Shown piece after piece: positions 2,746 to 32,486 of a stretch of 32,486 nucleotides of DNA. A program made the position numbers and the translations under genes. The number at the start of each line of letters is the position of its first letter. Within the stretch, counting starts at the first letter, position 1. Origin of the DNA: Escherichia phage IMM-001; the sequence record MF630922.1; one strand, written 5' to 3'. Under the pieces are notes generated by a model. That model had not been told where the DNA came from and searched no databases. It saw only the letters and a program-made list of their open reading frames with translations.

Positions 2746-3111
2746 ATGAAATTAACAAAGTTACAAAGAGATGAACTAAAGTTTAAGCTAGGTGGATTCT
2801 GCGCATACTGCGGCTGCGAACTCGGTGATAAGTGGCATGCTGACCATATGAAGCCAGTAATCAGGTATGATGGTAAAATGGTGCACGATGAGCTTGATAA
2901 TATTTCGAACCTTGTCCCGGCGTGCCACGCTTGCAATCTGCATAAGCACTGCAATAGTGTGGAGGATTACCGGAGAATTATTGACGATGGTAGGCGGGAG
3001 TTTTTGGCATCCGGCAAGGGTAAGGCGCTCGTTCGCATGGGGCTGGTTGATATGAAGATGGATGATATTGTGTTCTGGTTCGAGAAGTTTGAGAAATTGA
3101 ATAAGATTTAA
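2746..3111 (+). CDS. HNH endonuclease (121 aa)
   Basis: Cys pairs CAYCGC and CHACNLHKHC with HADH...N...H spacing typical of HNH nucleases; RBS aaggtg. Confidence 0.8.
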   Translation: MKLTKLQRDELKFKLGGFCAYCGCELGDKWHADHMKPVIRYDGKMVHDELDNISNLVPACHACNLHKHCNSVEDYRRIIDDGRREFLASGKGKALVRMGLVDMKMDDIVFWFEKFEKLNKI

Positions 3112-3588: not shown

Positions 3589-3633
3589 AATAGCACAAAT
3601 TGCTAAACAAGAGTGGCAAGGATGTCATATAAT
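3589..3633 (+). promoter_or_regulatory. Conserved IR promoter-like cassette copy 3 (AATAGCAC-aaa-TTGCTAAA, 22 nt, TATAAT)
   Basis: Motif family; leader ttcatcaaacaacgagatgg follows. Confidence 0.6.
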
Positions 3634-5683: not shown

Positions 5684-7252
5684 ATGTCTAATTTAGTTTG
5701 GGAGGAAATGACGTCAGCCGAAAAGATGGCGGTTAAGGCAATATCAACTCATAGCTTTGAGGGTTTTCTGAGGGTGTGGTTCCAACTGACACAGGGCGAG
5801 CGGTACATCCCAAACTGGCATCATAAATACCTTTGCAGGATAATTGACGAGATTATCGCTGGTGAGCGTAAGGACACCATCATTAACGTCGCTCCCGGTA
5901 GTGGAAAGACAGAAATTGCCTCAATCCACTTTCCAGCATACTCGATGGTTAAGCTGAAGAAGGTCAGGAACCTTAACATATCGTTTGCCGACTCACTGGT
6001 TAAGCGTAACTCCAAGCGAGTGCGTGACTTAATTAAGTCGGTTGAGTTCCAGGAGTTATTCCCATGCAAGTTTGGCACATGCAAGGATGATGAGCTACAG
6101 GTTCTGGATGAGTCTGGCAAAGTACGGTTTGAGTCAATCTCCAAGGCTGCTGGAGGCCAAATCACCGGCGCGAGGGGCGGCTATATAACCGATTCATATA
6201 GTGGCGCGGTTCTGTTAGATGATTTTGACAAACCAGCCGATATGCTTTCTGCCGTGTTCCGCGCAAACAATCACGTGATGCTAAAGAACACCATCCGCTC
6301 TCGTAGGGCTAGCTCAGTTAAAGGTAAAGCAACTCCGATTATCTCTATTCAGCAGCGACTTCACGTCAACGATAGCACGTGGTTCATGATGAATGGAGGT
6401 ATGGGTATCAGCTTCGATTTGATTAAGATACCAGCGCTAGTAACTGAAGATTACGTGGATACACTTCCTGACTGGATTAAGCAGCAATTCATTGATGACG
6501 TTCTATCAAGCGAATATATTGAGCGTGACGGCGTGAAATATTACAGCTACTTCCCAGAAAAGGAGTCGGTTAACGACCTGGTAGCAATGTGGGATTCAGA
6601 CAGCTATACATTCCTTAGCCAGTATCAGCAGGAGCCTGTAGCGCTTGGTGGTAATCTGATTAATGTAGAATGGCTCCAGCGCATTAGCGACACTCTGCGA
6701 CCGCCAGCTAAGTATGATTACAGATTCATGACTCTTGATACCGCCATGACAACAAAGTCATACAGCGACTTTAGTGTACTGCAACTTTGGGGTTATAAGG
6801 ATGGGAAGATTTACCTGCTTGACCAGCGACGAGGTAAGTTTGAAGCGCCGGAGCTAGAGGCTGAGTTATTGGATTTCGAGAAGATAGCAAGGGCATCCAA
6901 TCAGACAGATGGTATCCTTCGTAAAATCATCATCGAGAAGAAAGCCTCTGGCATCGGGCTGATTCAATCGGTAGGTAGGGTTATGCGGACACCAATCGAG
7001 CCATATGTGCCAGATAACGACAAGCTAACTCGCGTAATGAGTGCACTGCCTCAGATTAAGGCTGGTAACGTTATCCTGCCTGAGTCTGCAACATGGCTAA
7101 ACGGATTACTAACGGAGATTGCGGCATTCACGGCAGATGACTCGCATGTTCATGATGACCAGATTGACTGTTTAACTATGGCTGTCAACCTTGTTCTAAA
7201 CATTGCAGAGGATCCTAAATCAAGGATGATGAGATTAGCAGGAATCAAATAG
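5684..7252 (+). CDS. terL: terminase large subunit (522 aa)
   Basis: Walker A-like VAPGSGKTE near N-terminus, size and position before portal. Confidence 0.88.
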   Translation: MSNLVWEEMTSAEKMAVKAISTHSFEGFLRVWFQLTQGERYIPNWHHKYLCRIIDEIIAGERKDTIINVAPGSGKTEIASIHFPAYSMVKLKKVRNLNISFADSLVKRNSKRVRDLIKSVEFQELFPCKFGTCKDDELQVLDESGKVRFESISKAAGGQITGARGGYITDSYSGAVLLDDFDKPADMLSAVFRANNHVMLKNTIRSRRASSVKGKATPIISIQQRLHVNDSTWFMMNGGMGISFDLIKIPALVTEDYVDTLPDWIKQQFIDDVLSSEYIERDGVKYYSYFPEKESVNDLVAMWDSDSYTFLSQYQQEPVALGGNLINVEWLQRISDTLRPPAKYDYRFMTLDTAMTTKSYSDFSVLQLWGYKDGKIYLLDQRRGKFEAPELEAELLDFEKIARASNQTDGILRKIIIEKKASGIGLIQSVGRVMRTPIEPYVPDNDKLTRVMSALPQIKAGNVILPESATWLNGLLTEIAAFTADDSHVHDDQIDCLTMAVNLVLNIAEDPKSRMMRLAGIK

Positions 7253-7293
7253 CACTTTTTGCTAAAGACACTCCGCCATTGGTGGCGTATAGT
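7248..7293 (+). promoter_or_regulatory. Conserved IR promoter-like cassette copy 4 (AATAGCAC-ttt-TTGCTAAA, 23 nt, TATAGT), overlapping the terL stop
   Basis: Motif family. Confidence 0.55.
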
Positions 7294-10652: not shown

Positions 10653-10679
10653 GTAATCAAATGCTGCCTATGTTATATT
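10651..10679 (+). promoter_or_regulatory. Sigma70-like promoter (TTGTAA, 17 nt, TATATT)
   Basis: Hexamers at canonical spacing just after the terminator. Confidence 0.4.
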
Positions 10680-10698
10680 CAACTCTCATCTAAAAAAA

Positions 10699-10926
10699 AT
10701 GAGATTAAACATGGCTTACACCGAAGTTAAGGCTATTAGTGCAGATAGCGGTCGATTCAATACACTGCTTCAAGCCGCCATCGATGGTGGTTTTCAGCCA
10801 GTAAGTAAAATCACGGTAAATGGCTCACAGTCATATTCCATCGTCGTAGCAAAAGGCGCTGACAGTTCAATCACTGAAGCGAATGATCACCTCCACCAAT
10901 ATGCGCAAGCTGTTCGAAGCTGTTGA
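10699..10926 (+). CDS. hypothetical protein (75 aa)
   Basis: ORF in terminator/promoter-bounded cassette; overlaps next ORF in +1 frame. Confidence 0.35.
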   Translation: MRLNMAYTEVKAISADSGRFNTLLQAAIDGGFQPVSKITVNGSQSYSIVVAKGADSSITEANDHLHQYAQAVRSC

Positions 10927-11398
10927 AGCTGCGTCTGATGATGGCTTCACAATTGATACGTCAAGCCTGAGTCTATCATCAGGTCAGTTCTTTGCTTATG
11001 CATATAAAGGCAGTGCTGGTGGTTCTGTTTCTGTGGCGTGGGGAGACGTAACTGGCAAACCAACCACCTTTGCGCCAATTGTCGGCACTGGTGCGACCCA
11101 AGCAATGGCTGGCAATAAGACGCTGGCTAACATTGGTGGCGTAGTTCCCTTGTCTGGCCTTCCTATTGCAAGCACCACTGCCGCTGGCATTATCCAGATT
11201 GGCACTGGCGCAACTAACGCAATGCCGGGTAACAAGTTTGTTGCTGGCGCGGCGGTTGCTAACGTTACTGCTCAGACCGTGACTGGTGCTGATGCCGAAG
11301 CGGTGGCAACCTCAGCTACCACAGCTGTTAACGAAGTAGCCACCAAGTTAAACGACCTTCTCGCACAGCTGCGAGTCGCCAAGATCATCGCGGGCTAA
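10883..11398 (+). CDS. Gly/Ala/Thr-rich repeat protein (171 aa), possible fibre/decoration protein
   Basis: Internal direct repeat GTGATQAMAGNK / GTGATNAMPGNK and helical C-terminus; start uncertain (10883 or 10901). Confidence 0.35.
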   Translation: MITSTNMRKLFEAVEAASDDGFTIDTSSLSLSSGQFFAYAYKGSAGGSVSVAWGDVTGKPTTFAPIVGTGATQAMAGNKTLANIGGVVPLSGLPIASTTAAGIIQIGTGATNAMPGNKFVAGAAVANVTAQTVTGADAEAVATSATTAVNEVATKLNDLLAQLRVAKIIAG

Positions 11399-11424
11399 CG
11401 CCAAGCTGGCGGATAACTCACCTG

Positions 11425-11452
11425 TTGATTTGTGGTCGCCATGCTGTATAAT
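11425..11452 (+). promoter_or_regulatory. Sigma70-like promoter (TTGATT, 16 nt, TATAAT) upstream of major capsid gene
   Basis: Near-consensus hexamers. Confidence 0.55.
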
Positions 11453-12432: not shown

Positions 12433-12452
12433 TGGCACTAAATGACAAAACA

Positions 12453-12481
12453 ATACCACCGAAAGGTGGTATTTTTGTTTT
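12453..12481 (+). terminator. Rho-independent terminator
   Basis: ataccacc-gaaa-ggtggtat then T-rich run. Confidence 0.75.
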
Positions 12482-12507
12482 AACACAACGCTAATAGTGG
12501 TGCGGTT

Positions 12508-12981
12508 ATGGAATTTTCAGATTATATAGTTTACGACAATGGGAAGTTACGCTGGAAGAAGAAGACAGGGAGGTCAACCCAGATAGGCAAGGAGATAGGA
12601 ATAAATTCAGGGAGCGGATACCTTACATTCAAGTTTTATGGTAAAAGATACAAAGTCCACAGGGTTGTGTGGATGATAATGGTTGGGCCAATACCTGATG
12701 GTATGGAAACTGATCACATAAATCATGTTCGAGACGATAATAGAATTGAGAATCTCAGGCTTGTATCAAGGATTGAGAACATGAAGAACAAAAGCGTTTA
12801 CAGAAGCAACTCTTCCGGATTTTGCGGGGTTAGTGTCAAAAGCAGCGGCATGTACCACGCCTACATACAGTTTAATGGGAAGCAAGTAAACCTTGGTTTA
12901 TTTAAGGAAAAGCAGGATGCAGTAACGGCAAGATTGGAGGCAGAAATGGTTTATGGATTTCATGATAATCATGGGTTATAA
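12508..12981 (+). CDS. HNH homing-type endonuclease (157 aa)
   Basis: ETDHINHVRDDNRIENLRLVSRIENMKNK motif; free-standing between capsid and neck genes. Confidence 0.8.
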   Translation: MEFSDYIVYDNGKLRWKKKTGRSTQIGKEIGINSGSGYLTFKFYGKRYKVHRVVWMIMVGPIPDGMETDHINHVRDDNRIENLRLVSRIENMKNKSVYRSNSSGFCGVSVKSSGMYHAYIQFNGKQVNLGLFKEKQDAVTARLEAEMVYGFHDNHGL

Positions 12982-16626: not shown

Positions 16627-19599
16627 ATGGCAACTAACGAAATTGCTGGTATCACGCTAGCCGTCGACGTCGCTCAGGTCGATAGAGGTACGCAGTCCTT
16701 ACAGAAATTCAGGCAAGCAAACGAGCAAGCTGCAACAGGCATTAATAGCTTCGTTAATGCTGAACTTGTAGCCAAGACTCAAGCAAGGGATACAGCAAGG
16801 CAGCTTGAGGAGCAGCGAAAATCTTTCGCATCGCTTCAGCAAGTAATCGACCCAACTGCTGCTAAATTCCAGAAGTTGCAGAAAGCGGCAACCGAATTGG
16901 ACAAAGCATTTGAGTCTGGGCTGGTTCCTGATGATGAGTTCTTCAGGCTTGGCTCTGTTATTGAAACTCAAATTAATAAGCTAAACAGGTCCAGGGCTGC
17001 GTTGAGTGAAGAGGGTAGGGCTGCACTCCAAGCTTCAATAGATAAAGAAAAAGCAACAGCAACCGCGCAAAAGTTCATTCAATCCCTTGAGAACGAGGCG
17101 AATGCGGCAACTCTCACAAGGACTGAGCTGCTTCAACTTAAGGCTGCTCAGCTAGGCGTTAGCGACCAAGCGGCACCGATTATCGACAGGATTGGTAAGG
17201 CCGCTGAGGCGTCAGCAGTTCAATTGCAGAAGCAAAGCTCAGCTTTTGTTAAGTCAGGTTTAAGCGCAGGGCAGTACAAGCAAGCAATACGACAGCTCCC
17301 TGCTCAGATTACAGATATCGGAACCTCACTTGCTGGCGGCATCCCAATCTGGCTGATTGCAATTCAGCAAGGCGGTCAGATTAAGGATAGTTTCGGCGGT
17401 ATTGCGAACACGGCAAGGTTTGCACTTGCGGCCATTAATCCATTGACAGCTGTTGTTGGTACTTTGGGGCTGGCTCTTGGTGCTCTTGGTGTTGCAGCTT
17501 ATCAGGCTGATAAGAACACTCGCGGACTAGCATCAACGATAACGCTTGTTGGCAATTCAACTATCACTTCAACGGCACAGATAAATCAGGTTGTTGACGG
17601 GATTGAGAAAACAACATTAGCCACGCGCGGTCTTATTCAGGAAATAGCAAATAGTCTGGTAGCAAACGGTAATCTTACGCTTACGCAGATAGATAAGATA
17701 ACCAAGGCAACAGCGCAGTGGGCGACTGTAACATCAACCGACTCAAAGACTATCCTTGGATACTTTGACCAGATCACAAAGGACCCAATAAAGGGACTTA
17801 CTGACCTTGATAAGCAATTTAACTTTCTTCAGTATGGGCAGTTAAAATATATTGAGAATATCAGGAAGACGGCTGGAGAAACAGAGGCAGTAACCGCAGC
17901 CACTGAACTATTCGCTGAAGTTATGGAAAATAGGCTAGCAGACGTAGCGCTAAGCCTCAACCCTCTTGAAAGCGCGTGGAATAGCTTCAGGAAGTTTGTA
18001 AGTGAGATCTTGGATGACATCAGCAAAAGGACGCTTGGGGCCCTTAACTTAATAACTGACGTTGTTGCTGGTACGATTGAGCAGATAAGGTCACTCATAA
18101 ACTCCGGCGACATTCTCTTGGGTGAGTTTGCTATAGCAGCAACCAAGACGCTTCAGTCAATACCCGGCCTTGGTGATATAGGTAATGAGGCAATTGCTGA
18201 GCAGCAAAAGATTGTTGATGCAGCCAAGAAGCAAAATGAGGAGTTAGCAAAAAGCATATCTGAGCGAGATGCTAGAATCAGGAAGGGTGAGCTTGGCTAT
18301 GTGGAGAGAAATAATAACACTAACCTGAATGGAAATAATGCATCAACTGATAAGGAGTTCGGAGCAAGGAAGAAGGCCCTAGCAGACGAGCTTGATGCCA
18401 TAATGAAGGCTAGAAGGGAGAGGAACAAAGCTGTAAAAGAAGAAAGGGATTTAACCTTATCTTATGAATCTGGCGTTCTTGCACTTCAGGCTCAATTGAA
18501 GGTTTTGCAAGAGCATAGAACGATAAACGATGTAATAAGCAACGAGCGCAAGCAGCTATTTCAGGAAGAGGCTAAGTTTGCAATACTCGAGCAAAGATAT
18601 GCTGATGGTAGCCTAACCAAGTCTCAAGCCAAACTGCTCTCGCAGAAGGATATCATTCTTGAACAGGCTAAACAGAAGGCTGAACTAGGAGATCAGATTG
18701 TTCTTCAAGAGAGGTCAAACAAGTTACTTGATGATAACCTAAAGAAGACTGTTCAGATTACAAATGAGGCAAATAATGTTTCTCTTGCTGCTAATTTATC
18801 TGACAGGGAGAAGCAAAGGGCGAAAGAGCTTCAGGCGCTTCAATCCAATCAGTTAAACAAAGGTGGCTCTGTAGATGACGCTGATTTCCAGGCTTTACTG
18901 GAAGCAAGGCGTAATTTTTATGCTCAAGAGGACGCGCTACGTGAAAACTGGCTAGCCGGTGTGCAGTCATCATTCGCTAATTGGGCAGAGAGCGCGACAG
19001 ATGCATTTTCTATAGCTGGTGAATTGACCACTTCCGTGTTTACCGGAATTACAGAGCAGATTACCAGCCTTGTAACAACTGGCACGGCAGACTTCAGGAG
19101 CTTTACCGTTGAAATCCTGAAACAGATTGCCAAGATTGCAACACAGCTCTTAATTGTTAAGGCGATTGAGTCAAGTTTAAGCAGCTTCGGCGGAACTGGC
19201 GGCGCTATTGGTTCAATTGGTGGCGCGCTTGGCTTTGCTGGCGGTGGATATACTGGTGATGGAGGTAAGTACCAACCTGCCGGAACTGTGCACAAAGGTG
19301 AATTTGTTTTCACCAAAGAAGCAACCAGCAGGATTGGAGTCAAGAACCTGTACAAGCTTATGCGAGGTTATGCAAATGGCGGTGCTGTTGGTGGGCCATC
19401 TGGTTATGCTAATGGTGGTGCTGTCGGCGGTACTAATGTCAGTGTTGGCGGCGTTACTGTTAACGTAAATTCTGGAATCGGTGGCGGCAATGATGCTAAG
19501 GCTATAGAATCTGGAGTTAAGGTTATCGTGGCTGAGGAAATCAGTAAGTCATTCCAGCAGGGCGGCAGGGCGTATCAGTTCTTGCGCGGTTACAACTAA
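16627..19599 (+). CDS. tail tape measure protein (990 aa)
   Basis: Long helical protein with hydrophobic central segments and Gly-rich C-terminus, after chaperone pair. Confidence 0.85.
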
Positions 19600-22162: not shown

Positions 22163-25100
22163 ATGGCGCAGGACATTAAAATATACGGCAGCAAGGGCGG
22201 TAGTTCTAAGCAGAAACAACCAGTAGAGCAGCCAGATAACTTGATATCTGTAAACAAGGTTAAGGTTTTGCTAGCTGTTTCTGATGGTGAAGTTGATAAC
22301 TCGTTCTCGCTTAAAGACCTGTATCTTGCTGACGTTCCGGTTCAGAACCAGAATGGCACATACAACTACGAGGGTGTGACAGCAGAATTTCGCCCTGGCA
22401 CGCAGAGTCAGGATTACATCGCCGGCCTCGAGGGTGCCAGCTCTGAGGTGCAGGTCAATAGGGAGATTACAAACTCAACGCCTTACATAATTGCCGTTAA
22501 CAACACTCAACTATCTGCGATTAGGGTTAAATTATACTGGCCTCGACTGATTAATCAGGAAAGTAACGGAGACCTGAACGGAACAACTTGCGAGTACGCT
22601 ATTGACTTATCTGTTGATGGCTCCACGTACAGTGAGTACACGCGAGGCGTAGCTAACGGCAAGACGACTAGCGGGTACGACAGGAGTATCAGGGTAAACC
22701 TTCCAGCTGAGTTTTCTAGCGCTCTTGTTAGGGTCCGTAAAATTACAGCAGACTCAGAAAGCTCTACTCTGGTTAACGGAATGCAAATTACGACCTATCA
22801 GGAAGTAATCGATGCTAAATTCCGTTATCCGCTTACAGCGCTGGTTTACGTTGAGTTTAGTTCGGACCTCTTCCCTAACGGAATCCCGGCCATCTCAATC
22901 AAAAAGAAGTGGAAGTTGATTCGCGTTCCGACTAACTATAACCCAGAGACAAGAACTTATAGCGGAACTTGGAACGGCACATTTAAGATGGCGTATTCAA
23001 ATAACCCAGCGTGGGTTCTTTACGACCTTGTAACTAACCAGCGATATGGGCTTGACCAACGCGAACTTGGTATCACAATTGATAAATGGGGGTTGTATGA
23101 AGCGGCGCAATTCTGTGACCAAATGGTACCAGACGGAAAGGGAGGTGTGGAGCCGCGTTACTTGTGTGATGTTGTAATTCAGCAAAAGGTTGAGGCATAC
23201 CAAGTCATCCGTGATATCTGTTCTATCTTCCGTGGGCTAACATTCTATGATGGTGAGCAGATAGGGATTGTTGTCGATAAGCCGCGCCAACCATCATACG
23301 TATTCACCAACGATAACGTTGTTGACGGGTTATTTAACAGGACTTTCGGAAGCGACAAATCGCTATACACAGTCGCTAACGTTCAGTTTGATGATGTTGA
23401 AAACTCATACCAGCAAGATGTAGAGCCAGTATTTGAGCTAGAGGCAACAAGGCGTTTTGGTTACAACCCGGTTGACCTTACCGCTATTGGCTGTACTCGC
23501 AGGAGTGAAGCAAACCGCCGTGGTCGTTGGTTGTTAAAGACAAACTTGCGCAGCGAGACGATAAGTTTCACCACAGGGCTAGAAGGTATGATCCCAATGA
23601 TTGGTGAGGTGATTGCGGTTAATGACCAGGCATGGTCTAGCAACTACACCTTAAACCTTTCTGGTCGTATCGAGTCTGTAAGTGGTTTGCAGGTTTTCGT
23701 GCCGTTTAAGATTGATGCTGCTGCCGGCGACAGGATTCTGATTAACAAGCCTGACGGAATGCCGGAATACAGGACTATTGCATCTGTATCTGAAGATGGA
23801 ATGACGCTGCAACTTAACACGGCGTTTAGCTTCAACCCTCAACCTGATACTGTATTTGCGATTGATAAGGAGAATCTTGCGCTTCAGCAATATGTTGTGA
23901 CCGGGATTCAAAAAGCAGACAGCGATGGAGATGATGCGTTCGGTTACAGTATTACAGCGGTTGAGTACGACCCGAACAAATACGACGAGATTGATTACGG
24001 CGTAAACATTCAGGACAGGCCAACGTCAATCGTTGAGCCAGATACATTACTGGCACCTGAGAATGTTCAGGTAAGCAGCTACAGTAAGGTTGTGCAGGGT
24101 ATTTCAGTTGAGACTATGGTCATCACCTGGGATAAGGTTCAGTACGCTAAGACATACACAGTTCAGTGGCGTAAGGAGAATGGAAACTGGATTAATGTAC
24201 CGCGCACTGCAAACACAGAAGTTGATATTGAAGGTATTTACGCAGGCATTTATCAGGTTCGTGTAAGGGCTGTTTCTGATACTGAAAACGTATCTGCGTG
24301 GTCTGAAATTGTTTCAGCTAGCCTTACAGGTAAGATTGGAACTCCTTCTGCACCTACAGTTATTACGGCTTCAGATGACGAGGTGTTTGGCATTATGGTT
24401 AAGTGGGGATTCCCTGACAACTCAACTGATACGTCATACACTGAATTGCAGCAAGTTGCCGACAATGGTGATGGCACTTACACGCCAGAGAACGCAAGCT
24501 TGCTAACATTAGTTCCTTACCCGAGCTACGAGTATTGGCACACTACGCTACCGGCAGGTAAGGTTATCTGGTACAGGGCGCGACTAATCGACAAGATTGG
24601 TAACGTCTCACCATGGACTGATTTTGTAATGGGCATGGCAAGCGATGACGTTTCGGCAATCATTGGTGAAATTAAGGTTGATATAGAGAACTCGGAGGGG
24701 TTCAAGTATCTTCAGCAGAATGCCATTGAGTCAAACGGAGCTATTCAGGCGCAAGCAGAATCAATCATCGAGAACACCCTGGCGAATGATGGTGACGTTC
24801 GTCGAATGACTAAGGAAAACAGCAAGAGGAAGGCTGAATTTATTCAGGCAGTCAATCTTATCGCTGATGAAGAAAGGGCTCGCGTAGAGGCCCTGACTCA
24901 GCTTAAGGCACAGATTGATGATGAGATTGTAGCTTCGTTAACAAGGATTGATACTGCGCTAGCTGAGGAAACTCAAGCAAGGACCACTGCGGACACTGCT
25001 TTATCCGCAAGGCTTGGCGAGAATGAAGCTGCATTAAATGAGAAGCTTGACACATACGTTACCGCTGATTCAATTGGCGCTCAGTATGGAATTAAGCTCG

Positions 25101-25549
25101 GTCTTACTTACAATGGAGTTCAGTACAGTTCTGGGATGAGCATGGAGCTAACAGGTTCTGATGGTAATGTTCGTAGCCAGGTCATCTTTGACGCTAACAG
25201 GTTCGCGATCAGTAATGGTGTTAGTTCCGGTTCCGGTCAGTGGTCATTGCCTTTCGTAGTTGAGAATAATCAGGTCTTCATTCAGAGCGCAGTAATTCAG
25301 GACGGTTCAATCACTAACGCGAAGATTGGTAACAGGATTCAATCTAACAACTACGTGGCTGGATCTCAAGGATGGGCGATTGACAAGGCAGGTAGCGCCG
25401 AGTTTAGTAACGCAACTGTAAGGGGGAATTTATACGCAAATAACGGTAACTTTGCATTTAACGGAACAAACAACACTGTACAGATTAACAACAACGGAAT
25501 TACAGTTAATTTACCGAATGGTGGCAGGGTTGTAGTTGGAGTGTGGTAA
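22163..25549 (+). CDS. central tail fibre / host specificity protein, lambda J-like (1128 aa)
   Basis: Size and position after I-like gene; long multi-domain protein. Confidence 0.8.
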   Translation: MAQDIKIYGSKGGSSKQKQPVEQPDNLISVNKVKVLLAVSDGEVDNSFSLKDLYLADVPVQNQNGTYNYEGVTAEFRPGTQSQDYIAGLEGASSEVQVNREITNSTPYIIAVNNTQLSAIRVKLYWPRLINQESNGDLNGTTCEYAIDLSVDGSTYSEYTRGVANGKTTSGYDRSIRVNLPAEFSSALVRVRKITADSESSTLVNGMQITTYQEVIDAKFRYPLTALVYVEFSSDLFPNGIPAISIKKKWKLIRVPTNYNPETRTYSGTWNGTFKMAYSNNPAWVLYDLVTNQRYGLDQRELGITIDKWGLYEAAQFCDQMVPDGKGGVEPRYLCDVVIQQKVEAYQVIRDICSIFRGLTFYDGEQIGIVVDKPRQPSYVFTNDNVVDGLFNRTFGSDKSLYTVANVQFDDVENSYQQDVEPVFELEATRRFGYNPVDLTAIGCTRRSEANRRGRWLLKTNLRSETISFTTGLEGMIPMIGEVIAVNDQAWSSNYTLNLSGRIESVSGLQVFVPFKIDAAAGDRILINKPDGMPEYRTIASVSEDGMTLQLNTAFSFNPQPDTVFAIDKENLALQQYVVTGIQKADSDGDDAFGYSITAVEYDPNKYDEIDYGVNIQDRPTSIVEPDTLLAPENVQVSSYSKVVQGISVETMVITWDKVQYAKTYTVQWRKENGNWINVPRTANTEVDIEGIYAGIYQVRVRAVSDTENVSAWSEIVSASLTGKIGTPSAPTVITASDDEVFGIMVKWGFPDNSTDTSYTELQQVADNGDGTYTPENASLLTLVPYPSYEYWHTTLPAGKVIWYRARLIDKIGNVSPWTDFVMGMASDDVSAIIGEIKVDIENSEGFKYLQQNAIESNGAIQAQAESIIENTLANDGDVRRMTKENSKRKAEFIQAVNLIADEERARVEALTQLKAQIDDEIVASLTRIDTALAEETQARTTADTALSARLGENEAALNEKLDTYVTADSIGAQYGIKLGLTYNGVQYSSGMSMELTGSDGNVRSQVIFDANRFAISNGVSSGSGQWSLPFVVENNQVFIQSAVIQDGSITNAKIGNRIQSNNYVAGSQGWAIDKAGSAEFSNATVRGNLYANNGNFAFNGTNNTVQINNNGITVNLPNGGRVVVGVW

Positions 25550-25579: not shown

Positions 25580-26542
25580 TTAGTAGAAGTTTGGGATAAA
25601 TGGCAGAGCCATTGATATGTTTGTGTCGAATGGGAACTGCGCCCCAGTCTGTGTTGAATAGTTCCCTATTACAGTTCCAGGTACAGCCATTACGGCGCCT
25701 CCAGACATACAGACACCCTTGTACCTTAAGTTGTTATACCCACCAGTAACCCTTGTTGTAGCTCCACACCTGAGTAGTGGAAAGAACCCCCCATTTATTG
25801 ACTGGAAACCATTGGTTATTTGTATAAAACCACTAAGAACGAAAGGTCTCCTGACGCTTGAGAAGACAATCTGACCAGAACTGTTAGACATTGTAAGGCC
25901 GTGGCCAGCTATTGGAGGCTCATTTCTGAATATCACTAATTGGACGTAAGTGCTTGCTGCCACGTCATCTATGCCGCCGTAATTTATATCGCGACACCAT
26001 ATTGTACTCCCGTCACTCTCGAGAGAGACGTTTGGGTTATCCCATTTACCAAACGGGATTCCGCTAACTGGAAGTGAAGCCGCGCCGTTAACCTGAATCC
26101 CACCAACCCATGCCGCCGACATTAACCTAGAATTGCTTGATATTGCCAAAAAGTCAGTTGAGTTCTCAACCAGTATGCCAGGGCTTGACGACGATGAAGC
26201 ATCAAGTATCTCAAAGCAATTACCAGCGAAGTCAATAATTCGACCTCTGGCACCATTAAAGTTACTAAGCGTTATCCTGCCAACTCCGTCATTTACCTTC
26301 TGAAACCCGTTAATATAATAAACTTCAGGTACAACATCATAGGCGTCAACGTGGACGGCCTTTGTTGGCAAGCAGAATGCGGTAGAGCCTGGTGACATGG
26401 TTAAACCAAAGTCCCATGATGATGCTGGCGTCGAAAGTCCATTAGTATTTATTGATCCAGTCACAGCAGGTGCTCTTAGTCCAGCGGTAATCTCCATCGC
26501 TGGCCTTCCGTCATTTAGGTCAATCAATATACCTTGCGGCAT
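25580..26542 (-). CDS. putative receptor-binding protein / tail fibre (320 aa)
   Basis: Minus-strand gene after J-like gene, TAATG-coupled to the upstream lipoprotein gene; ATG 26542 has AAGGAG 8 nt upstream (ORF-track GTG 26551 sits inside that RBS). Confidence 0.4.
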   Translation of the reverse strand: MPQGILIDLNDGRPAMEITAGLRAPAVTGSINTNGLSTPASSWDFGLTMSPGSTAFCLPTKAVHVDAYDVVPEVYYINGFQKVNDGVGRITLSNFNGARGRIIDFAGNCFEILDASSSSSPGILVENSTDFLAISSNSRLMSAAWVGGIQVNGAASLPVSGIPFGKWDNPNVSLESDGSTIWCRDINYGGIDDVAASTYVQLVIFRNEPPIAGHGLTMSNSSGQIVFSSVRRPFVLSGFIQITNGFQSINGGFFPLLRCGATTRVTGGYNNLRYKGVCMSGGAVMAVPGTVIGNYSTQTGAQFPFDTNISMALPFIPNFY

Positions 26543-26787
26543 TATTTCCACTCCTTAGATCCGTGGTCAGCAACTGAACCACCGTAACCGCCGCCAACCT
26601 TGCTCTCAATACCAGCGTAGCGCACATCAACTTCACCAGCCGGTACAACTACACCATTTTTCCATTTAGCAACGCACACGCCGTTTGCTTGCGTTGCACA
26701 CCAACCGTCAGGACGAGGAGCAGATGAACAACCTACCATCATGATTGCTGCTGCGGCGATGATTGAAAGTTTGATTAAGTTAGTCAT
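26542..26787 (-). CDS. small lipoprotein (81 aa), candidate superinfection-exclusion factor
   Basis: Signal peptide [20 protein letters not shown] with lipobox-like MVGC; RBS aagga. Confidence 0.65.
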
Positions 26788-26828
26788 TTACGTATTCCTT
26801 ATGAGGTTCGTTTCTTTTCGATGGAGTA

Positions 26829-26870
26829 ACTATATCTCATTCTTGAGATTTGTCTTTAGCTATTCGTGCT
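26829..26870 (-). promoter_or_regulatory. Conserved IR promoter-like cassette copy 8, variant (AGCACGAATAGCTAAAG, 22 nt, TATAGT), overlapping the MTase stop
   Basis: Motif family on minus strand upstream of the lipoprotein gene. Confidence 0.5.
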
Positions 26871-27578
26871 GTTTATTCTATTTTTTGCGACATTAAAATA
26901 CTCAGTATCTAGCTCTATACCTATAAATGACCTGTTTGTGTTTACGCATGCTACGCCAGTTGTTCCGCTACCCATGCAGTTATCAAGAACTAAGTCACCC
27001 TCGTCAGTGTATGTTTTTATTAGGTACTCCATCAAGGAAACCGGCTTTTGCGTTGGGTGTAGTGATGATTTCTGCTTGTCGCTAGCCATCTTTATCACAT
27101 CCCTTGGGTATCTCATTGTTGAATCATAAGATAGTGATTCGAAATTCTGATCTCCATAGTTTGTTCCATTGTCGTTCCTCTTTGTTGCTGTTTTTCTTTT
27201 GTGACCCTCTGTCATTTGCGGGTTGTATTTGTAAGGTTTTTTGTAGAAAACAAGTATGTTTTCATGAGCCTTCATCGGAGCTCTCTTGGCATTAAGGTGT
27301 CCGGTTGCATGTGTTTTTTCCCATATCCACTCATGCTTCAACATTTCAAGATTGGAGCACCCGAGTACTTTATCGAATGGTGTTTGCGCCGTAAGTACAA
27401 TTGCACCCTTGCACACCCTCCTGTATTGAGTCCATAGCAAGTCAAGGTCTATAACTGAATCCCACTTGTTTCTGGTTGTTCCGTATGGTAAGTCGCACAA
27501 AATCATGTCAATTGAATTGTCTGGGATTTCTTTCATAAGCTCAAGGCAGTCGCCATTCATTAATTTAATCATTTCCAT
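26856..27578 (-). CDS. orphan DNA methyltransferase, beta-class, DPPY motif (240 aa; may start at second ATG 27572)
   Basis: Motif IV ILCDLPYG near N-terminus and motif I VLDNCMGSGTTG near C-terminus; no adjacent restriction enzyme gene. Confidence 0.8.
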   Translation of the reverse strand: MEMIKLMNGDCLELMKEIPDNSIDMILCDLPYGTTRNKWDSVIDLDLLWTQYRRVCKGAIVLTAQTPFDKVLGCSNLEMLKHEWIWEKTHATGHLNAKRAPMKAHENILVFYKKPYKYNPQMTEGHKRKTATKRNDNGTNYGDQNFESLSYDSTMRYPRDVIKMASDKQKSSLHPTQKPVSLMEYLIKTYTDEGDLVLDNCMGSGTTGVACVNTNRSFIGIELDTEYFNVAKNRINSTNS

Positions 27579-27603
27579 CTCTCATTGCGTTTTTGTTGTG
27601 ATG

Positions 27604-27646
27604 ATTATACATAACCAAGCAAGGGTGTCTTTAGCTATTCGTGCTA
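27604..27646 (-). promoter_or_regulatory. Conserved IR promoter-like cassette copy 9, variant (TAGCACGAATAGCTAAAG, 22 nt, TATAAT)
   Basis: Motif family on minus strand upstream of the MTase gene. Confidence 0.55.
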
Positions 27647-27745
27647 CTGGTTACGCGTAACCGATGTAAATCGATGTATACCATATGCATCCGCTGGAAA
27701 TCGTATACGCATTGTTACGCCTAGTTACGCCATAGTTACATTAAA

Positions 27746-27806
27746 ATATCTATATATATCAACCTTTTACTCTTATTATTATTATTATATATATTACTGT
27801 GTATAT
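27746..27806 (+). repeat. AT-rich repeat, copy B, containing (TTA)5 microsatellite at 27773..27787
   Basis: Shares core with 229..297; lies in the 535-bp ORF-free region between divergent blocks. Confidence 0.8.
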
Positions 27807-28113
27807 CATGTAACCACTGTTCTGGAGTGTTCCGGCTATAATTTTTATATCATGTGATTTTATACAGTATTTCGCGGCACATATACCAATGCACCACCCG
27901 CTAAAATCGGTATACACGGTATACGCATTATTTACATTGAGCTATAGCGGCCCAGCCGGAGCAGTTAAGCGTAACTAATGCCAATGTCTACACGTAATTA
28001 CAAAATTATACGCGTATACTTGATTAATTAATCGGGGATACCAATTAGACGTGGTGACAAGCGTTCTGCATAATTATCACATCGAAAGCAAACAACCATA
28101 GAGAGATAGAGAA

Positions 28114-28308
28114 ATGCCATACTTCATCATTAAAGAGAAAAAAAACGCACTGTTCGGAGATTGCTACTTCGGCGGTGAGGCTGGATATACAATTCACAAA
28201 TCTGAAGCGGACCGATTCGATACCAAGGAAGAGGCCAAGTCTATTCTGACTGGATATTTCACTGAGGAAGATTTGAAAGCTGTTAAGATTGTTAAAATTA
28301 AGGATTGA
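28114..28308 (+). CDS. hypothetical small protein (64 aa)
   Basis: First ORF of rightward block; RBS agagag. Confidence 0.45.
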   Translation: MPYFIIKEKKNALFGDCYFGGEAGYTIHKSEADRFDTKEEAKSILTGYFTEEDLKAVKIVKIKD

Positions 28309-28311
28309 ACC

Positions 28312-29283
28312 ATGACATTTACCGTATACACCAACGACGAACTAACAAACGAATCCTATCACGAAGAGCAGAGCCACATCTCTGGCTCTTCACTGGCTGA
28401 GATTCTCGCCACTTCACCAGCAAAATGGAAATTCAAGCAGCGCGATAACTCAAGCGCAGCACTTAAGTTTGGCACTCTAAGTCACTGCATGATGCTTGAG
28501 CGTGAGGCGTTCGATTCAACCTACATGCGAGCCACTGACTTTGATGAAGTTGAGGGGTTAATCACAAGCCAAACCGCGTTATCGGCAGCACTTAAGAAAG
28601 TTGGAGTTTCTGGTACGTCAGGAAAAGGCTATAACGAGCTAGTAGAGATGATGTACAAGTGCGGTGAGGATTGGCCTGTTAAGTGGCTAATTGAACAGCA
28701 GGAGAGCGCTGAGGCGTTAATTAGTGGCAAGGAGTTGGTTAGTGCGAAAGATTACGATAAGGTAATCGCAATGCGCGAGGTTCTGACCAATATCCCAGCT
28801 TACGATGCAGTTATTAATTCACCAACAGCGCAGAAAGAGCTATCAATCTTTGGTGAGATTCTTGGATGCGGCGTTAAGGTTAGACTTGACCATGTGGATG
28901 TTGTTGATGGCGCGGTTTACATTACTGACTACAAAACCACAGCAGACGCAAGTCCTCGAGGATTTGGTAAGTCGGCTTATGACCATGGATACCTTTGCAA
29001 GATGGCACTCCAGCGCGATTTGTTTGTTAAGGCGTTTAGCGAGAAGCGTAAGGTTGTAGTTCGTCTTCTGGCGCAGGAGAAGACAGAGCCTTATTTGCCA
29101 ATGTGCTACACGCTCACAGATGAGCAGCTTCACATTGGTCGCCTTCAATATATGGAAGCACTTGCCACGTACAAGCAGTGTAAGGAACTTGATGTTTGGC
29201 CTGGATACAGTAATGGGATTACAGAGCAAGATTTAATGATTCCTGAATGGGTAGCAAAACAATACGGAGAGATATTAAAATGA
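28312..29283 (+). CDS. PD-(D/E)xK family nuclease, RecB-like domain (323 aa); likely recombination exonuclease
   Basis: VRLDHVDVVD and YITDYKTT resemble nuclease motifs II and III (hhD / D-Y-K); sits upstream of Erf. Confidence 0.6.
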   Translation: MTFTVYTNDELTNESYHEEQSHISGSSLAEILATSPAKWKFKQRDNSSAALKFGTLSHCMMLEREAFDSTYMRATDFDEVEGLITSQTALSAALKKVGVSGTSGKGYNELVEMMYKCGEDWPVKWLIEQQESAEALISGKELVSAKDYDKVIAMREVLTNIPAYDAVINSPTAQKELSIFGEILGCGVKVRLDHVDVVDGAVYITDYKTTADASPRGFGKSAYDHGYLCKMALQRDLFVKAFSEKRKVVVRLLAQEKTEPYLPMCYTLTDEQLHIGRLQYMEALATYKQCKELDVWPGYSNGITEQDLMIPEWVAKQYGEILK

Positions 29284-29744
29284 ATAAAGATTGCTGGCAG
29301 ACACCATTAGAATTATTTAATCAACTAAATGATAAGTACAATTTCCAGGTTGACGCGTGCGCAAGTCAAGAGAATGCTTTGTGTGAGCATTTTTGGACCG
29401 AAGATGATGACTGTTTGCAGCAGGATTGGGGTGATGAAAATGATTTTGTTTGGTGCAACCCACCATACAGCAACCCATTGCCATTTGTCGAAAAGTGCCA
29501 GGAGTACGGTTACGCTGTTATGCTTTTAAATCAGGACACATCAACGAAATGGGCTAAGATAGTTTTTGAAAAATCCTCAAAGGTAATACTGTTATCAGAT
29601 AGGGTTAGGTTTATAAACCCATCGACGCTCGAGATTGGGAAGTCAAACCCAAAATGCCAGATGATTGTAGTGTTCGATAATAGTGTGGAGCATGGGCCTG
29701 TCATAAGGTGGTGCTCAATAAAAGATATTCACAAAAACATCTAA
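29280..29744 (+). CDS. Dam-like phage N6-adenine DNA methyltransferase (154 aa)
   Basis: N-terminal CWQTP and catalytic NPPY motifs; ATG 29280 overlaps upstream stop. Confidence 0.7.
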   Translation: MNKDCWQTPLELFNQLNDKYNFQVDACASQENALCEHFWTEDDDCLQQDWGDENDFVWCNPPYSNPLPFVEKCQEYGYAVMLLNQDTSTKWAKIVFEKSSKVILLSDRVRFINPSTLEIGKSNPKCQMIVVFDNSVEHGPVIRWCSIKDIHKNI

Positions 29745-29788
29745 ATAGCACTAATTGCTAAAGATAAAATTAACAGGTGTGGTATGAT
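29744..29788 (+). promoter_or_regulatory. Conserved IR promoter-like cassette copy 6 (AATAGCAC-taa-TTGCTAAA, 22 nt, TATGAT), overlapping the Dam-like stop
   Basis: Motif family; leader accacatcaacaacgagatgg. Confidence 0.55.
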
Positions 29789-29819
29789 TACCACATCAAC
29801 AACGAGATGGTTTAAGCAA

Positions 29820-29963
29820 ATGAAAGTATTTAAAAGTAAAATATGTAGCTACATTAAAATGGCCATTAATCGAAACGATGATATTATAAAAACAATAGAT
29901 ATAAAACCTGGCGACGAGGTTTTTGTCATAATCGAAAAGTCTATAGCGTTAGAACTTGCATAA
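29820..29963 (+). CDS. hypothetical small protein (47 aa, below threshold)
   Basis: ATG downstream of cassette copy 6; the in-frame upstream ATG 29784 lies in the promoter-like element. Confidence 0.3.
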   Translation: MKVFKSKICSYIKMAINRNDDIIKTIDIKPGDEVFVIIEKSIALELA

Positions 29964-30000
29964 TACATCTTAAAAAATTCAGAAAAACTAGAGGATTGAT

Positions 30001-30651
30001 ATGAACATTTCAGAATCATGCAAATCAATTTTAAACGCACTGCACACTGCTAAATCGCTATTTGCGAAGGCTGAGAAGTCAAAGCAAAACTCGCACTTAA
30101 AGAACAAGTACGCCACTTTAGAAGACGTTTTAGCAGCAGTTGAGCCAGGATTGGATGAGTGCGGTTTGGTAATGTTCCAAAGCGTAATAGATGATGAATC
30201 AACGAACCGAATAAAGGTTGAAACTAAGCTGTTTCATGCAGAATCTGGAGAATGGGTTAGCTTCTTAATGATTGTCCCAATCAGTAAGCAAGATGCTCAA
30301 GGTTACGGCTCTGCTCTTACATATGCTCGACGCTATGGCATTACAGCAGCCTTAGGGCTTAGCCAGGCTGATGATGATGGTAATCTTGCAGCTAAGGGTG
30401 TTAAAGACTTCAAGCGAGAACTTGAGAAGTGCAATACGCTCGATGAGCTTCGTAATGTCTGGAAGGAGGCTAAACAGTCACTTGATGCGGCAGGATGGAA
30501 GGTTTTCGAACCACACATTATCGAGCGCAAGGCAGAGATTCAGGCAAATGAAATGAATGGCTTCAACCCAGCCACGCCTAAGAAAGTTGCAGAAAAAAGT
30601 AGTGATAAAGAAAAGATTGAAGTAGAATCACAACAAATCGATACATTCTAA
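30001..30651 (+). CDS. erf: Erf-family single-strand annealing protein (216 aa)
   Basis: GSALTYARRYGITAALG hallmark and NSHLKNKYATLEDVL N-terminal motif; RBS gagga. Confidence 0.75.
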   Translation: MNISESCKSILNALHTAKSLFAKAEKSKQNSHLKNKYATLEDVLAAVEPGLDECGLVMFQSVIDDESTNRIKVETKLFHAESGEWVSFLMIVPISKQDAQGYGSALTYARRYGITAALGLSQADDDGNLAAKGVKDFKRELEKCNTLDELRNVWKEAKQSLDAAGWKVFEPHIIERKAEIQANEMNGFNPATPKKVAEKSSDKEKIEVESQQIDTF

Positions 30652-30693: not shown

Positions 30694-31131
30694 ATGCACG
30701 TAATTACTGGTCAGATTCGCCGCGCTCCATTCACTAAAGAAGGTCAGAATGCTAATGGTACCTGGAAAATGTTTGCGGTTGATTTGAGTGAGCGATACAA
30801 AGATAAAGATGGTCAGACTCAGTATAGTAACTATCGCGCAGTCTTCTTCGCGAAAGAGTCAATTTTAGATTGGTATAATGAAGCATTTCAAGAAGGTAAA
30901 ATTGTTAGCGTTAGCGCTGAAAGTTTATCTGTAGATGTTCGAGATAAAGATGGCAAGACTTACGTAACAATCAATATGAATAATCCTCGACTTGAGTTTA
31001 GTCAGCGTGGAGATTCGCAACCACAACAAAATCAGAGACAGCAGCAGCAACAACAGCAGCAGAATAATCAGCAGAAGAGGCAACCACAACCACAACAACA
31101 GCAGCAGTTTGACGACTCCATTCCATTCTGA
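30694..31131 (+). CDS. ssb: single-stranded DNA-binding protein-like (145 aa) with poly-Gln linker and acidic tip
   Basis: C-terminal FDDSIPF resembles the SSB DDDIPF tail; preceded by a Gln-rich linker; N-terminal domain not canonical. Confidence 0.55.
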   Translation: MHVITGQIRRAPFTKEGQNANGTWKMFAVDLSERYKDKDGQTQYSNYRAVFFAKESILDWYNEAFQEGKIVSVSAESLSVDVRDKDGKTYVTINMNNPRLEFSQRGDSQPQQNQRQQQQQQQQNNQQKRQPQPQQQQQFDDSIPF

Positions 31132-31140
31132 TAAAAGATA

Positions 31141-31163
31141 AGGCCCCTTTCGGGGCCTTTTTA
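31141..31163. terminator. Bidirectional rho-independent terminator
   Basis: aggcccc-tttc-ggggcct then T5; convergent genes on both sides. Confidence 0.7.
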
Positions 31164-31691
31164 TGGCATGTTTACTCGAATTGAAACGAACGAGTCAGAA
31201 GGTATATCTATAGGGTCTCCGTTACTGAAGCCGTCAATTTTATTTCTCGCGAAAGACGGAGATGAATCGTGAGTGCGATGATAAGTTTTAACAACTATTG
31301 AACCATCAGCTTCAACCTCGTAATCTAGCCATATTCTAGGCTGCTTATTCAAGTCTACAGGTACCTCAAATCCACCGTTAACACCGCCCCAAGAAGTGTC
31401 AGAATTTAGGCCAAGCACACCTGATACCTTATAAACACCAGTAGAAACCCTCTCCACTGAAGCTCCTTCTGATTCCTCGTTTGTTTCAAAACTCCCATCT
31501 CGGAATACCTTAATTATAGGTGAGGCCACTTTGACGAAACCGCTAGGGTCCACTGTTGTGTTTAATCCGTGTAAAAGTTCCATTACCGCAAGTCCGCCAT
31601 TATAAGTTGAGTTAGCTATATAACAACGCCTTGCCCCATAAGATATGGCAAGCTGACCCCACTCGCGTGGAGTTGGGCCAGGCATATCCAT
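31161..31691 (-). CDS. tail-fibre-like protein, C-terminal part (176 aa from first ATG); frame stays open upstream to 31970 with no start codon
   Basis: Upstream in-frame translation ...NLQNKLQARSNLGLGTSATINHGDDAGQ... looks fibre-like; no ATG/GTG/TTG in 93 upstream codons. Confidence 0.4.
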   Translation of the reverse strand: MDMPGPTPREWGQLAISYGARRCYIANSTYNGGLAVMELLHGLNTTVDPSGFVKVASPIIKVFRDGSFETNEESEGASVERVSTGVYKVSGVLGLNSDTSWGGVNGGFEVPVDLNKQPRIWLDYEVEADGSIVVKTYHRTHDSSPSFARNKIDGFSNGDPIDIPSDSFVSIRVNMP

Positions 31692-32011
31692 GAATACAAC
31701 AGAATCTTTGTGTAAGTTAAAACCGGAACCGTAAGGCTCATATCCATAAGACCATGTTTTTGTTGTCCTATTCGCTGAAAGAAACCTTGGTCCATAAACT
31801 AGCTGGACCTGCCCTGCATCGTCTCCATGATTAATAGTCGCAGAGGTTCCAAGTCCAAGATTGGACCTTGCTTGTAGCTTGTTTTGTAAGTCATTCAGGT
31901 TTTCTTCTTTTTTTAAAAAACTTGATGGATTTACTGAATTAGCGTAATCTGCCGCTTGCTGCGCTGATGCTCAGGGAGCAATCCTTCTTCAGTTGCTCAA
32001 GCGCTTCGCCT

Positions 32012-32179
32012 TTAATCTTCATTTTTAAACCACCTTTCTTTAAGAACCTGAGCCCAAGACTTTGCATCATCTTCTGTCATGAAGAAACTTAATTTTGGGT
32101 ACTTGTGAAACCCCTTTAACTCAACAACCCAATGACCATTATTGTGACTGTAAGAAACTGTTTTTTCTTTCATTATTAC
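32012..32179 (-). CDS. hypothetical small protein (about 55 aa from internal ATG)
   Basis: ORF-track entry starts at a GTG inside structured leader; internal ATG has gagag upstream. Confidence 0.35.
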   Translation of the reverse strand, partial: VIMKEKTVSYSHNNGHWVVELKGFHKYPKLSFFMTEDDAKSWAQVLKERWFKNED

Positions 32180-32385
32180 CATCTCTCTATATTTGCTTGT
32201 TATCGAAATCTCTTCAACGTACTCGCTACAACTCGGGATTTTAAACCCGGCCCGGCATCCTGGCAAAAGGACCCGCAAGGCGCTTTGGTGGGTTAGGTAA
32301 CGCTTCCTCACATTGCGCGGTGTCGTTCACTCTTTTTGGTTCCTTTCGGAAGTGACTCAGAGTCCAGCACCGTTTCGATGAATAC

Positions 32386-32431
32386 ATAGTAGCAACTTAC
32401 TCATGATTGAGCATTAGCAAAAAGTGCTATT
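32386..32431 (-). promoter_or_regulatory. Conserved IR promoter-like cassette copy 7 (AATAGCAC-ttt-TTGCTAA, 23 nt, TACTAT)
   Basis: Reverse complement of 32414..32431 equals copy 4 motif; leader gtattcatcgaaacg. Confidence 0.5.
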
Positions 32432-32486
32432 CGTTGGATTTATTGATTGTTGCAGCTATTGCAATGATTCACATGACTATTGCACA

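Follow-up and report, generated by a model that had tools for sequence, protein, structure and literature searches.

Genes at the locus

The 32.5-kb stretch of Escherichia phage IMM-001 analysed here (32,486 nucleotides of MF630922.1, referred to below as the window) covers the greater part of the arm of a T1-like siphophage that encodes structural and recombination functions. It contains two genes for DNA methyltransferases, which we call MT1 and MT2, and both occupy presence/absence slots flanking a RecE-Erf-SSB recombination module (Table 1). The window shares full synteny and ~80-86% DNA identity with phages ES, TR2, vB_Ec-G8 (G8), OzMSK/Msk, CEB_EC3a and JeanPiccard, and several of these E. 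coli phage relatives are classified as Drexlerviridae, Braunvirinae; judged by its sequence, the source phage is a virulent, T1-like and Braunvirinae-like member of the Drexlerviridae. A preliminary description of the locus had proposed that the two enzymes are unrelated orphans with different specificities that confer broad protection against host restriction-modification (RM) systems. Both reading frames are present at the positions and on the strands given there, and both far exceed chance expectation. Our findings bear out the unrelated, orphan character of the enzymes and favour a protective role that is narrow and motif-specific.

MT1 is a beta-class enzyme with a DLPY motif

The MT1 protein belongs to the PF01555 (N6_N4_Mtase) family, with an E value of 6.8e-31 (108.4 bits against a cutoff of 26.7), its residues 23-232 matching positions 1-220 of a profile of 221; it also matches phrog_67 (E = 3.8e-84). 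Motif IV is N-terminal (residues 29-32) and motif I, DNCMGSGTT, is C-terminal (residues 199-207), and because motif IV precedes the motif that binds S-adenosylmethionine the order is that of the beta class. The gene, its strand and its class had been assigned correctly in the preliminary description, which had, in addition, called the product a DPPY enzyme. Motif IV reads instead D-L-P-Y (in the context MILCDLPYGTT), which departs from the canonical (D/N/S)-P-P-(Y/F/W). Relatives of MT1 in the PDB include the M1.HpyAVI-type 'DpnA', CcrM, M.BceJIV, M.MboIIA and M.RsrI.

A departure in a catalytic motif may be the mark of a dead enzyme, an outcome that the preliminary description had named, for one of the genes, as a refutation of its proposal, and our literature search for DLPY as a methyltransferase motif returned nothing relevant. 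Nevertheless, among the best 120 of at least 8,000 homologues in the protein database DLPY is found in 118 and DMPY in the other two, with DNCMGSGTT present in 97. DLPY is present too in M.Phi93I, an enzyme of a lactococcal phage whose 99%-similar twin, M.Phi145I, is active. Because the motif is kept so widely and is shared with M.Phi93I, we read DLPY from the sequences as the norm of a subfamily and not as a lesion, and we reject it as a sign of inactivity; that either gene is catalytically dead is very improbable. When MT1 is aligned with a small set of five relatives, motif I does not vary, and neither do 80 further columns.

Of the possible start codons, the ATG at 27572 is the more likely, giving a predicted protein of 238 amino acids (aa): it is favoured because its Shine-Dalgarno spacing is better and because the length then equals that of the closest homologue (P0001, 238 aa, 86% identical). 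The variable segment of MT1, at residues ~121-158, coincides with the position at which beta-class enzymes recognise their targets, and it is unlike that of any characterised relative. The target is probably a short, asymmetric motif that cannot be read from the protein. By analogy with a relative at 46% identity, we infer that the enzyme makes N6-methyladenine (m6A). The gene has a GC content of 40.2%, against 44.3% for the window; its close homologues are found in unrelated phages of both Gram-positive and Gram-negative hosts, and hundreds of unrelated phages carry strongly conserved members of the family.

MT2 is a minimal phage-type Dam

The MT2 protein matches PF05869 'Dam' (E = 5e-40, 137.3 bits against a cutoff of 28.1) and the NCBIfam equivalog model TIGR01712 phage_N6A_met (111.8 bits against 97.05). 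It keeps NPPY, at residues 60-63, together with the five other residues that are invariant across 56 homologues of the family, and its predicted structure is a confident Rossmann methyltransferase model, consisting of the catalytic core without a separate target-recognition domain. No sequence similarity was detectable between MT2 and the alpha-class PF02086 family, to which E. coli Dam, T4 Dam and DpnM belong, and MT2 lies outside that family. Thus, while the position, strand and NPPY motif of the preliminary description stand, its term 'Dam-like' is apt only in the sense of the T1/HP1-phage enzymes. The Hia5-type non-specific adenine methyltransferases were also considered; these have DPPY near residue 191-194 and a different architecture, and we draw no inference from them.

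The start of MT2 is supported by a GGAGAG Shine-Dalgarno sequence, by an ATGA overlap with the stop codon of recE and by twelve clusters of orthologues of 154 aa; the overlap indicates translational coupling to recE. The clade is narrow, its members having exactly 154 aa and 78-86% identity over the 12 clusters, and the next relatives are at most 46% identical. MT2 has a GC content of ~40% (window, 44%). It most probably makes G(m6A)TC, because it is bracketed by M.Phi93DAM, for which this product has been shown, and by the Dam protein of phage T1, which is known from the literature of the 1980s to be GATC-specific; these two are ~37% identical and so are as distant from each other as they are from MT2.

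Orphan status and origin

Pairwise comparison of the MT1 and MT2 proteins revealed no similarity, and they belong to different families, as had been proposed. It is almost certain from these family assignments that their targets differ too, because orphan enzymes of different families are involved. No restriction endonuclease gene was found in the 32.5-kb window, which is part of a genome, and every neighbour within ~5 kb of either gene has another assignment, among them the receptor-binding protein (RBP), the Cor-like lipoprotein, the RecE-like exonuclease, Erf and SSB; neither gene is accompanied by the cognate endonuclease that would make it half of a type II RM system. The other nucleases in the window are RecE and two HNH genes (2746-3111 and 12508-12981) that lie far from MT1 and MT2. 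RecE itself was considered as a hidden restriction partner of MT2 and rejected: it is a conserved exonuclease VIII that is found also in relatives that lack MT2, including T1 (gp29).

In 5,426 complete E. coli genomes no DNA matching either methyltransferase gene was found, which speaks against recent capture from an RM system or a prophage of that species. Exchange within the phage gene pool fits this absence, the low GC content of both genes and the homologues of MT1 in unrelated phages.

Both genes occupy variable slots

Comparison of the locus with eight relatives and with metagenomic contigs identified two variable positions: slot 1, between cor and the non-coding region, and slot 2, between recE and erf. 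The polymorphism of both slots is visible directly in this comparison. MT1 fills slot 1 in the window and in contig L011 (where the protein is 86% identical), and a MT1-like gene, 59% identical, fills it in Msk/OzMSK. JeanPiccard has a different methyltransferase there (phrog_757; 'Dcm-like' according to its depositors), G8, 2004V and several metagenome contigs have an anti-repressor, and the slot is empty in ES, T145P1, T1 and two contigs. The JeanPiccard protein has no match in Pfam and matches only PHROG 757, 'DNA methyltransferase', so that it is assigned to the C5 class from the depositors' label and from visual inspection, which shows PC- and ENP-like motifs. Slot 2 contains MT2 in the window, in G8, JeanPiccard and T145P1 and in all contigs that were retrieved through MT2 orthologues, a small open reading frame (ORF) in Msk, an HNH remnant in ES and nothing in 2004V or T1. 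The dam gene of T1 is located elsewhere, after the helicase/VRR-NUC genes. The remnant in ES (L009, 4485-5040) is, by eye, an apparently broken HNH-type homing endonuclease ORF of 69 aa (...NGYLKVTIGGRNYKVHRIIWE...) in place of MT2; it is unannotated in the ES record, where product names often look misassigned ('capsid maturation protease' for the RecE homologue, for example).

No PF01555 gene occupies slot 1 in any of about a dozen other MT2-bearing loci, and the exact pairing of MT1 with MT2 is therefore uncommon. JeanPiccard also has one methyltransferase per slot, so that this layout as such is not uncommon.

A repeated promoter-like motif marks the cassette boundaries

MT1 is bracketed by a perfect 20-nt direct repeat, TGTCTTTAGCTATTCGTGCT, whose two copies lie 775 bp apart. 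In the direction of transcription (minus strand) the motif reads AGCACGAATAGCTAAAGACA and is followed, 16 nt further on, by TATAAT or TATAGT; at the MT1 site a promoter scan scored AAGACA-16-TATAAT at 10/12. No terminator is predicted between MT1 and cor. Every filled slot 1 has two copies of the motif around its cargo, while the empty slot of ES and T145P1 has one copy, followed by exactly the sequence that lies after the second copy in the window. The MT2 insertion is bounded on its right by a third copy, AGCACTAATTGCTAAAGATA, and the alignment shows that the 3' end of recE joins the motif directly in genomes that lack MT2.

The motif also encodes the ends of slot-1 genes: the ORF of MT1 finishes with S-T-N-S-stop and those of the MT1-like gene of Msk and of the JeanPiccard enzyme, which is unrelated, with S-T-N-C-stop (window 26856-26870, L005 20962-20976, L006 about 16787-16795). 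Since three different methyltransferase ORFs end within it, the motif supplies the 3' end of captured genes.

A 16-nt core, AGCACGAATTGCTAAA, containing the palindrome AGCA-N5-TGCT, occurs seven times in the window where 0.47 copies are expected, always in the orientation of the local genes and with a TATAAT-like hexamer ~20 nt after it. Related genomes have ~8-10 copies and T1 has only two, which are weak. Three of the copies in the window are followed by a conserved leader, ACATC.ACAACGAGATGG. These features make the core a candidate for a phage-specific promoter or regulator site, and we infer that the motif would double as a recombination linker.

Free exchange at such linkers could also maintain methyltransferases that are near-neutral or selfish cargo. 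Slot content does vary freely, from anti-repressors and three kinds of methyltransferase to an HNH remnant or nothing, the MT1 plus MT2 combination was found in 0 of the about 12 other MT2-bearing loci, and no correlation with phenotype emerged from the BASEL data described below. Against this, both ORFs are intact with all of their catalytic residues, and two patterns point to purifying selection, namely the exact length and high identity of the MT2 clade and the strong conservation of the MT1 family in unrelated phages. We consider the cargo explanation improbable.

GATC depletion and site avoidance

GATC, the likely target of MT2, is the rarest of all 256 tetramers in the window: 20 sites are present where 126 are expected (ratio 0.16), a count that is ~9 standard deviations below second-order Markov simulations, and between 27150 and 32486 there are none where 19.5 are expected. 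The relatives are depleted whether or not they have MT2, with ratios of 0.24-0.31 at genome scale and 0.38-0.39 in two partial loci of 10 kb; the ratio in T1 is 0.78. Since the depletion is lineage-wide, we rejected it as a test of the specificity of MT2, for which it is uninformative. The PstI site, CTGCAG, is absent from the window (0 against 8 expected) and is also low in the relatives (ES, 0 against 7.9), and the EcoKI site AACN6GTGC is likewise absent from the window. The pattern suggests that common restriction sites of E. coli are avoided passively.

Depletion of GATC has a bearing on another possible role for MT2, as an accessory of DNA metabolism that fully methylates the few GATC sites left on DNA undergoing rapid replication or recombination and so prevents nicking by MutH, or that times packaging or recombination. 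Counter-selection against GATC in enterobacterial phages has been attributed to the action of MutH on under-methylated sites. It is strong in this lineage and T1, with its GATC-specific Dam, is barely depleted, and MT2 itself is embedded in the recE-erf-ssb operon and coupled to its first large gene. Yet MT2 is dispensable, since 2004V, Msk and ES do without it while showing the same depletion of GATC; the location of dam in T1 shows that linkage to recE is no rule of the family, and a connection with MutH or with packaging is hypothetical. This role of MT2 appears unlikely, if less so than neutral cargo.

How broad is the protection?

Anti-restriction has been demonstrated for the nearest characterised relatives of both enzymes, each of which shields DNA from a specific nuclease: HphI in the case of M.Phi145I/M.Phi93I, DpnII in that of M.Phi93DAM (PMC4190342). 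In addition, a survey of the Drexlerviridae suggested that the dam-carrying Hanriverviruses defend themselves by methylation, citing the resistance of phage pSf-1 to six endonucleases (PMC7552041). These observations are in keeping with the proposal that MT1 and MT2 together protect broadly against host RM systems. For data on methyltransferases of the Drexlerviridae we consulted Korf 2019 and Olsen 2020, and found a general statement on dam only.

JeanPiccard is the nearest relative to have been characterised, and for it broad protection is already largely refuted. With methyltransferases in the same two slots it was restricted by all six RM systems tested, 10^3- to 10^6-fold or completely (S1 Data, PMC8594841). 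Its efficiency of plating was 3e-6 to 6e-5 on EcoKI, 4e-4 to 3e-3 on EcoCFT_I, 7e-6 to 1.4e-4 on EcoCFT_II and 1e-6 to 9e-6 on EcoPI, and no plaques formed on EcoRI or EcoRV (PMC8594841). The BASEL authors saw no pattern linking methyltransferase genes to resistance. Moreover, each enzyme masks one short motif only, and two such motifs are too few to protect against enzymes of types I, II and III whose sites are unrelated. Finally, the phage visibly relies on site avoidance, and the likely target of MT2 is nearly absent from its DNA. For these reasons broad protection is unsupported, and we regard it as improbable; most plausibly, the two enzymes give narrow, motif-specific cover.

Other features of the window

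The remaining genes are listed in Table 1. The gene at the left border of slot 1 is labelled as a Cor superinfection exclusion protein in the annotation of G8, and the RecE-like gene is the first large gene of the conserved recombination module. The divergent non-coding region between them is better conserved than the flanking genes, with long invariant runs in an alignment of six phages, among them an AT-rich block of ~90 nt. Within it the units GTTACGC, TATACGC and GTTACAT are iterated, and a perfect palindrome is present twice, as GGTTACGCGTAACC (27648-27661) and as TATACGCGTATA (near 28007-28018). The region may serve as an origin of replication, or as a divergent control region with multiple operators. 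An Rfam scan of 26500-30100 gave a sub-threshold chance match only, and none for this region.

At the position of the lateral tail fibre, which encodes 486-845 aa in the relatives, there is only an ORF of 176 aa, comprising just the C-terminal PF25670 domain; upstream of it, to the end of the window, all ORFs are of 99 aa or fewer, and 31563-32063 is without a match in the eight relatives. The fibre may have been truncated, replaced or split (31161-32486). Two segments among the head genes, 10656-11444 and 12434-12971, also lack a DNA match in these relatives. They include a 171-aa virion structural protein (phrog_1954, 10883-11398) and the HNH_3 homing endonuclease at 12508-12981, and three of the 20 GATC sites fall within them.

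Table 1. Positions of genes, sequence motifs and GATC sites in the window.
Feature	Position	Strand	Remarks
GpJ-like tail tip	22163-25549	+	
DUF6453 RBP	25580-26551	-	
Cor-like phage lipoprotein	26542-26787	-	PF24052, E = 3.4e-40; 3' of MT1 and co-oriented with it; left-hand border of slot 1
Downstream copy of 20-nt motif	26851-26870	-	Encodes the MT1 end S-T-N-S-stop; with TATAGT (26834-26829), promoter-like site before cor
MT1, orphan beta-class amino-methyltransferase	26856-27578	-	ORF of 240 aa
Non-coding region	27579-28113		535 bp
Upstream copy of 20-nt motif	27626-27645	-	With TATAAT (27609-27604), promoter-like site 26 nt upstream of the MT1 ORF
Conserved non-coding divergent region	27646-28113		Separates the MT1 cassette from the hyp64-recE operon; right-hand border of slot 1
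64-aa ORF	28114-28308	+	
RecE-like PD-(D/E)XK exonuclease VIII	28312-29283	+	PF12684, E = 1e-22; phrog_412, E = 4.5e-102
MT2, orphan phage-type 'Dam'	29280-29744	+	154 aa
Third copy of 20-nt motif	29747-29766	+	Begins 3 nt past the MT2 stop; precedes the small ORF, then erf
Small ORF	29784-29963	+	
Erf	30001-30651	+	
SSB	30694-31131	+	
Tail-fibre C-terminal ORF	31161-31691	-	
16-nt core copies	1529-1544, 2278-2293, 3592-3607, 7251-7266, 29747-29762	+	
16-nt core copies	26855-26870, 27630-27645	-	
GATC sites	3579, 7211, 9423, 10338, 10885, 11383, 11826, 12712, 13329, 15852, 17772, 18006, 18691, 19829, 23590, 25207, 25362, 26454, 26558, 27149		

Discussion

The explanation that we favour, with a probability of about 0.65, is that MT1 and MT2 are two independently acquired cassettes, each specifying a functional, stand-alone N6-adenine methyltransferase, and that together they would give the phage a narrow form of counter-defence. 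MT1 would have arrived as a 775-bp promoter-plus-gene cassette, inserted at the conserved 20-nt promoter-like motif upstream of cor and transcribed from its own promoter-like site. MT2 would be a minimal PF05869 phage Dam that was inserted between the stop codon of recE and the next copy of the motif, and through its coupling to recE it would be produced alongside the recombination and replication proteins during the synthesis of progeny DNA. Both enzymes would mark progeny DNA during replication, and in the next host the genome would be shielded only from nucleases whose sites overlap the two motifs; in the case of GATC marking these would be, for example, nucleases of the DpnII/MboI type and possibly MutH. 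Such counter-defence would be layered on the passive avoidance of sites that is seen in the depletion or absence of GATC, CTGCAG and EcoKI sites.

The integrity of the genes, their families and conserved motifs, the boundaries of the cassettes and the depletion of sites can be read off directly; the activity of the enzymes, their targets, the promoter function of the motif and the contribution to fitness are the steps at which this explanation is exposed, and several observations weigh against it there. The targets of MT1 and MT2 are extrapolated from relatives at 31-46% identity, and the solved relatives of MT1 vary widely in specificity (M.BceJIV, for example, recognises GTWWAC; CcrM and M.MboIIA differ again). 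Depletion of GATC is equally strong in relatives that lack MT2, so that composition does not corroborate a role at GATC, and if MT2 is specific for GATC the depletion leaves it few targets. A promoter role for the 20-nt motif is proposed from a consensus scan and from its gene-oriented placement alone, and its conserved block lies further from the -10 element than a standard -35 would. Lastly, no measurable connection of methyltransferase genes with resistance to restriction emerges from the BASEL phenotypes, so that even a narrow benefit is putative.

A further and more novel reading, which we think rather unlikely, comes in two halves. In the first half the motif, AGCACGAAT[T/A]GCTAAAGACA, would be a dedicated recombination linker: the Braunvirinae would swap promoter-plus-gene counter-defence cassettes (three kinds of methyltransferase, as well as anti-repressors) at fixed sites, with the motif supplying even the last codons and the stop of captured genes. 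In the second half the MT2 clade would have no classical anti-restriction role, and its 154-aa proteins, encoded in the recE operon, would act in recombination or replication within a genome purged of GATC, or would have a target other than GATC.

If the two enzymes are indeed narrow counter-defence cassettes, little changes in the general picture of these phages. For annotators, the lesson is that possession of two methyltransferase genes does not predict resistance to restriction in this phage family. The work also documents a large, phage-borne beta-class subfamily with a D-L-P-Y motif, one member of which is active. The exact boundaries of the cassettes at a repeated promoter-like motif suggest a route by which counter-defence genes are exchanged among T1-like phages, and such a route for accessory genes matters for predicting the host range of therapeutic phages.

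Comparison with known systems

Two orphan methyltransferases in a T1-like phage are a known pattern: orphan N6-adenine and C5-cytosine methyltransferases have already been reported to be abundant in the Drexlerviridae. The nearest case is JeanPiccard (Bas02, MZ501080), which has the same layout of two slots and two methyltransferases. Its gene order is that of the window, with gpJ, RBP, a cor-like gene, a methyltransferase on the minus strand, the control region, small ORFs, recE, an orthologue of MT2, erf and ssb, and its slot 1 is bracketed by the same 20-nt motif. The MT2 orthologue is 84% identical in amino acids. JeanPiccard differs in that its slot-1 enzyme is of the phrog_757 kind and its RBP allele is only 40% identical.

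The recurrence of a motif at cassette boundaries recalls the PeSL mobile promoter cassettes of the hyperplastic regions in T4-type phages. The two share a short conserved sequence associated with promoters, which is repeated between small accessory genes and lies at the breakpoints of gene swaps. The motif of the window is different in sequence, being AGCAC-N5-TGCTAAA, followed after ~20 nt by a TATAAT-like element, and its role in promotion or recombination is putative.

The pair of enzyme families to which MT1 and MT2 belong has already been characterised in a lactococcal phage. M.Phi93I, of a lactococcal 936-type phage (Skunavirus), is likewise an orphan phage PF01555 enzyme with DLPY and with HPTQKP and DNC.GS.TT blocks, and its full-length identity to MT1 is 46%. 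It differs in having 282 aa, with ~30 extra residues exactly in the variable target-recognition segment, and in the location of its gene, which lies in the packaging module of a Gram-positive phage whereas MT1 adjoins cor. Heterologous expression of M.Phi145I yields GGWG(m6A) and confers protection from HphI (Murphy et al. 2014, PMC4190342); the GGWGA target of M.Phi93I need not apply to MT1, because the recognition segments differ. M.Phi93DAM and T1 Dam (gp20) are PF05869 proteins like MT2, with NPPY as almost the sole classical motif, and are 31% and 33% identical to it, respectively. T1 Dam is the larger protein, with 237 aa and N-terminal, internal and C-terminal extensions. M.Phi93DAM makes G(m6A)TC, as judged by resistance to DpnII and sensitivity to DpnI (PMC4190342). 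Within these known families the alleles of the window are new, with MT1 and MT2 being at most 86% identical to anything in the databases searched.

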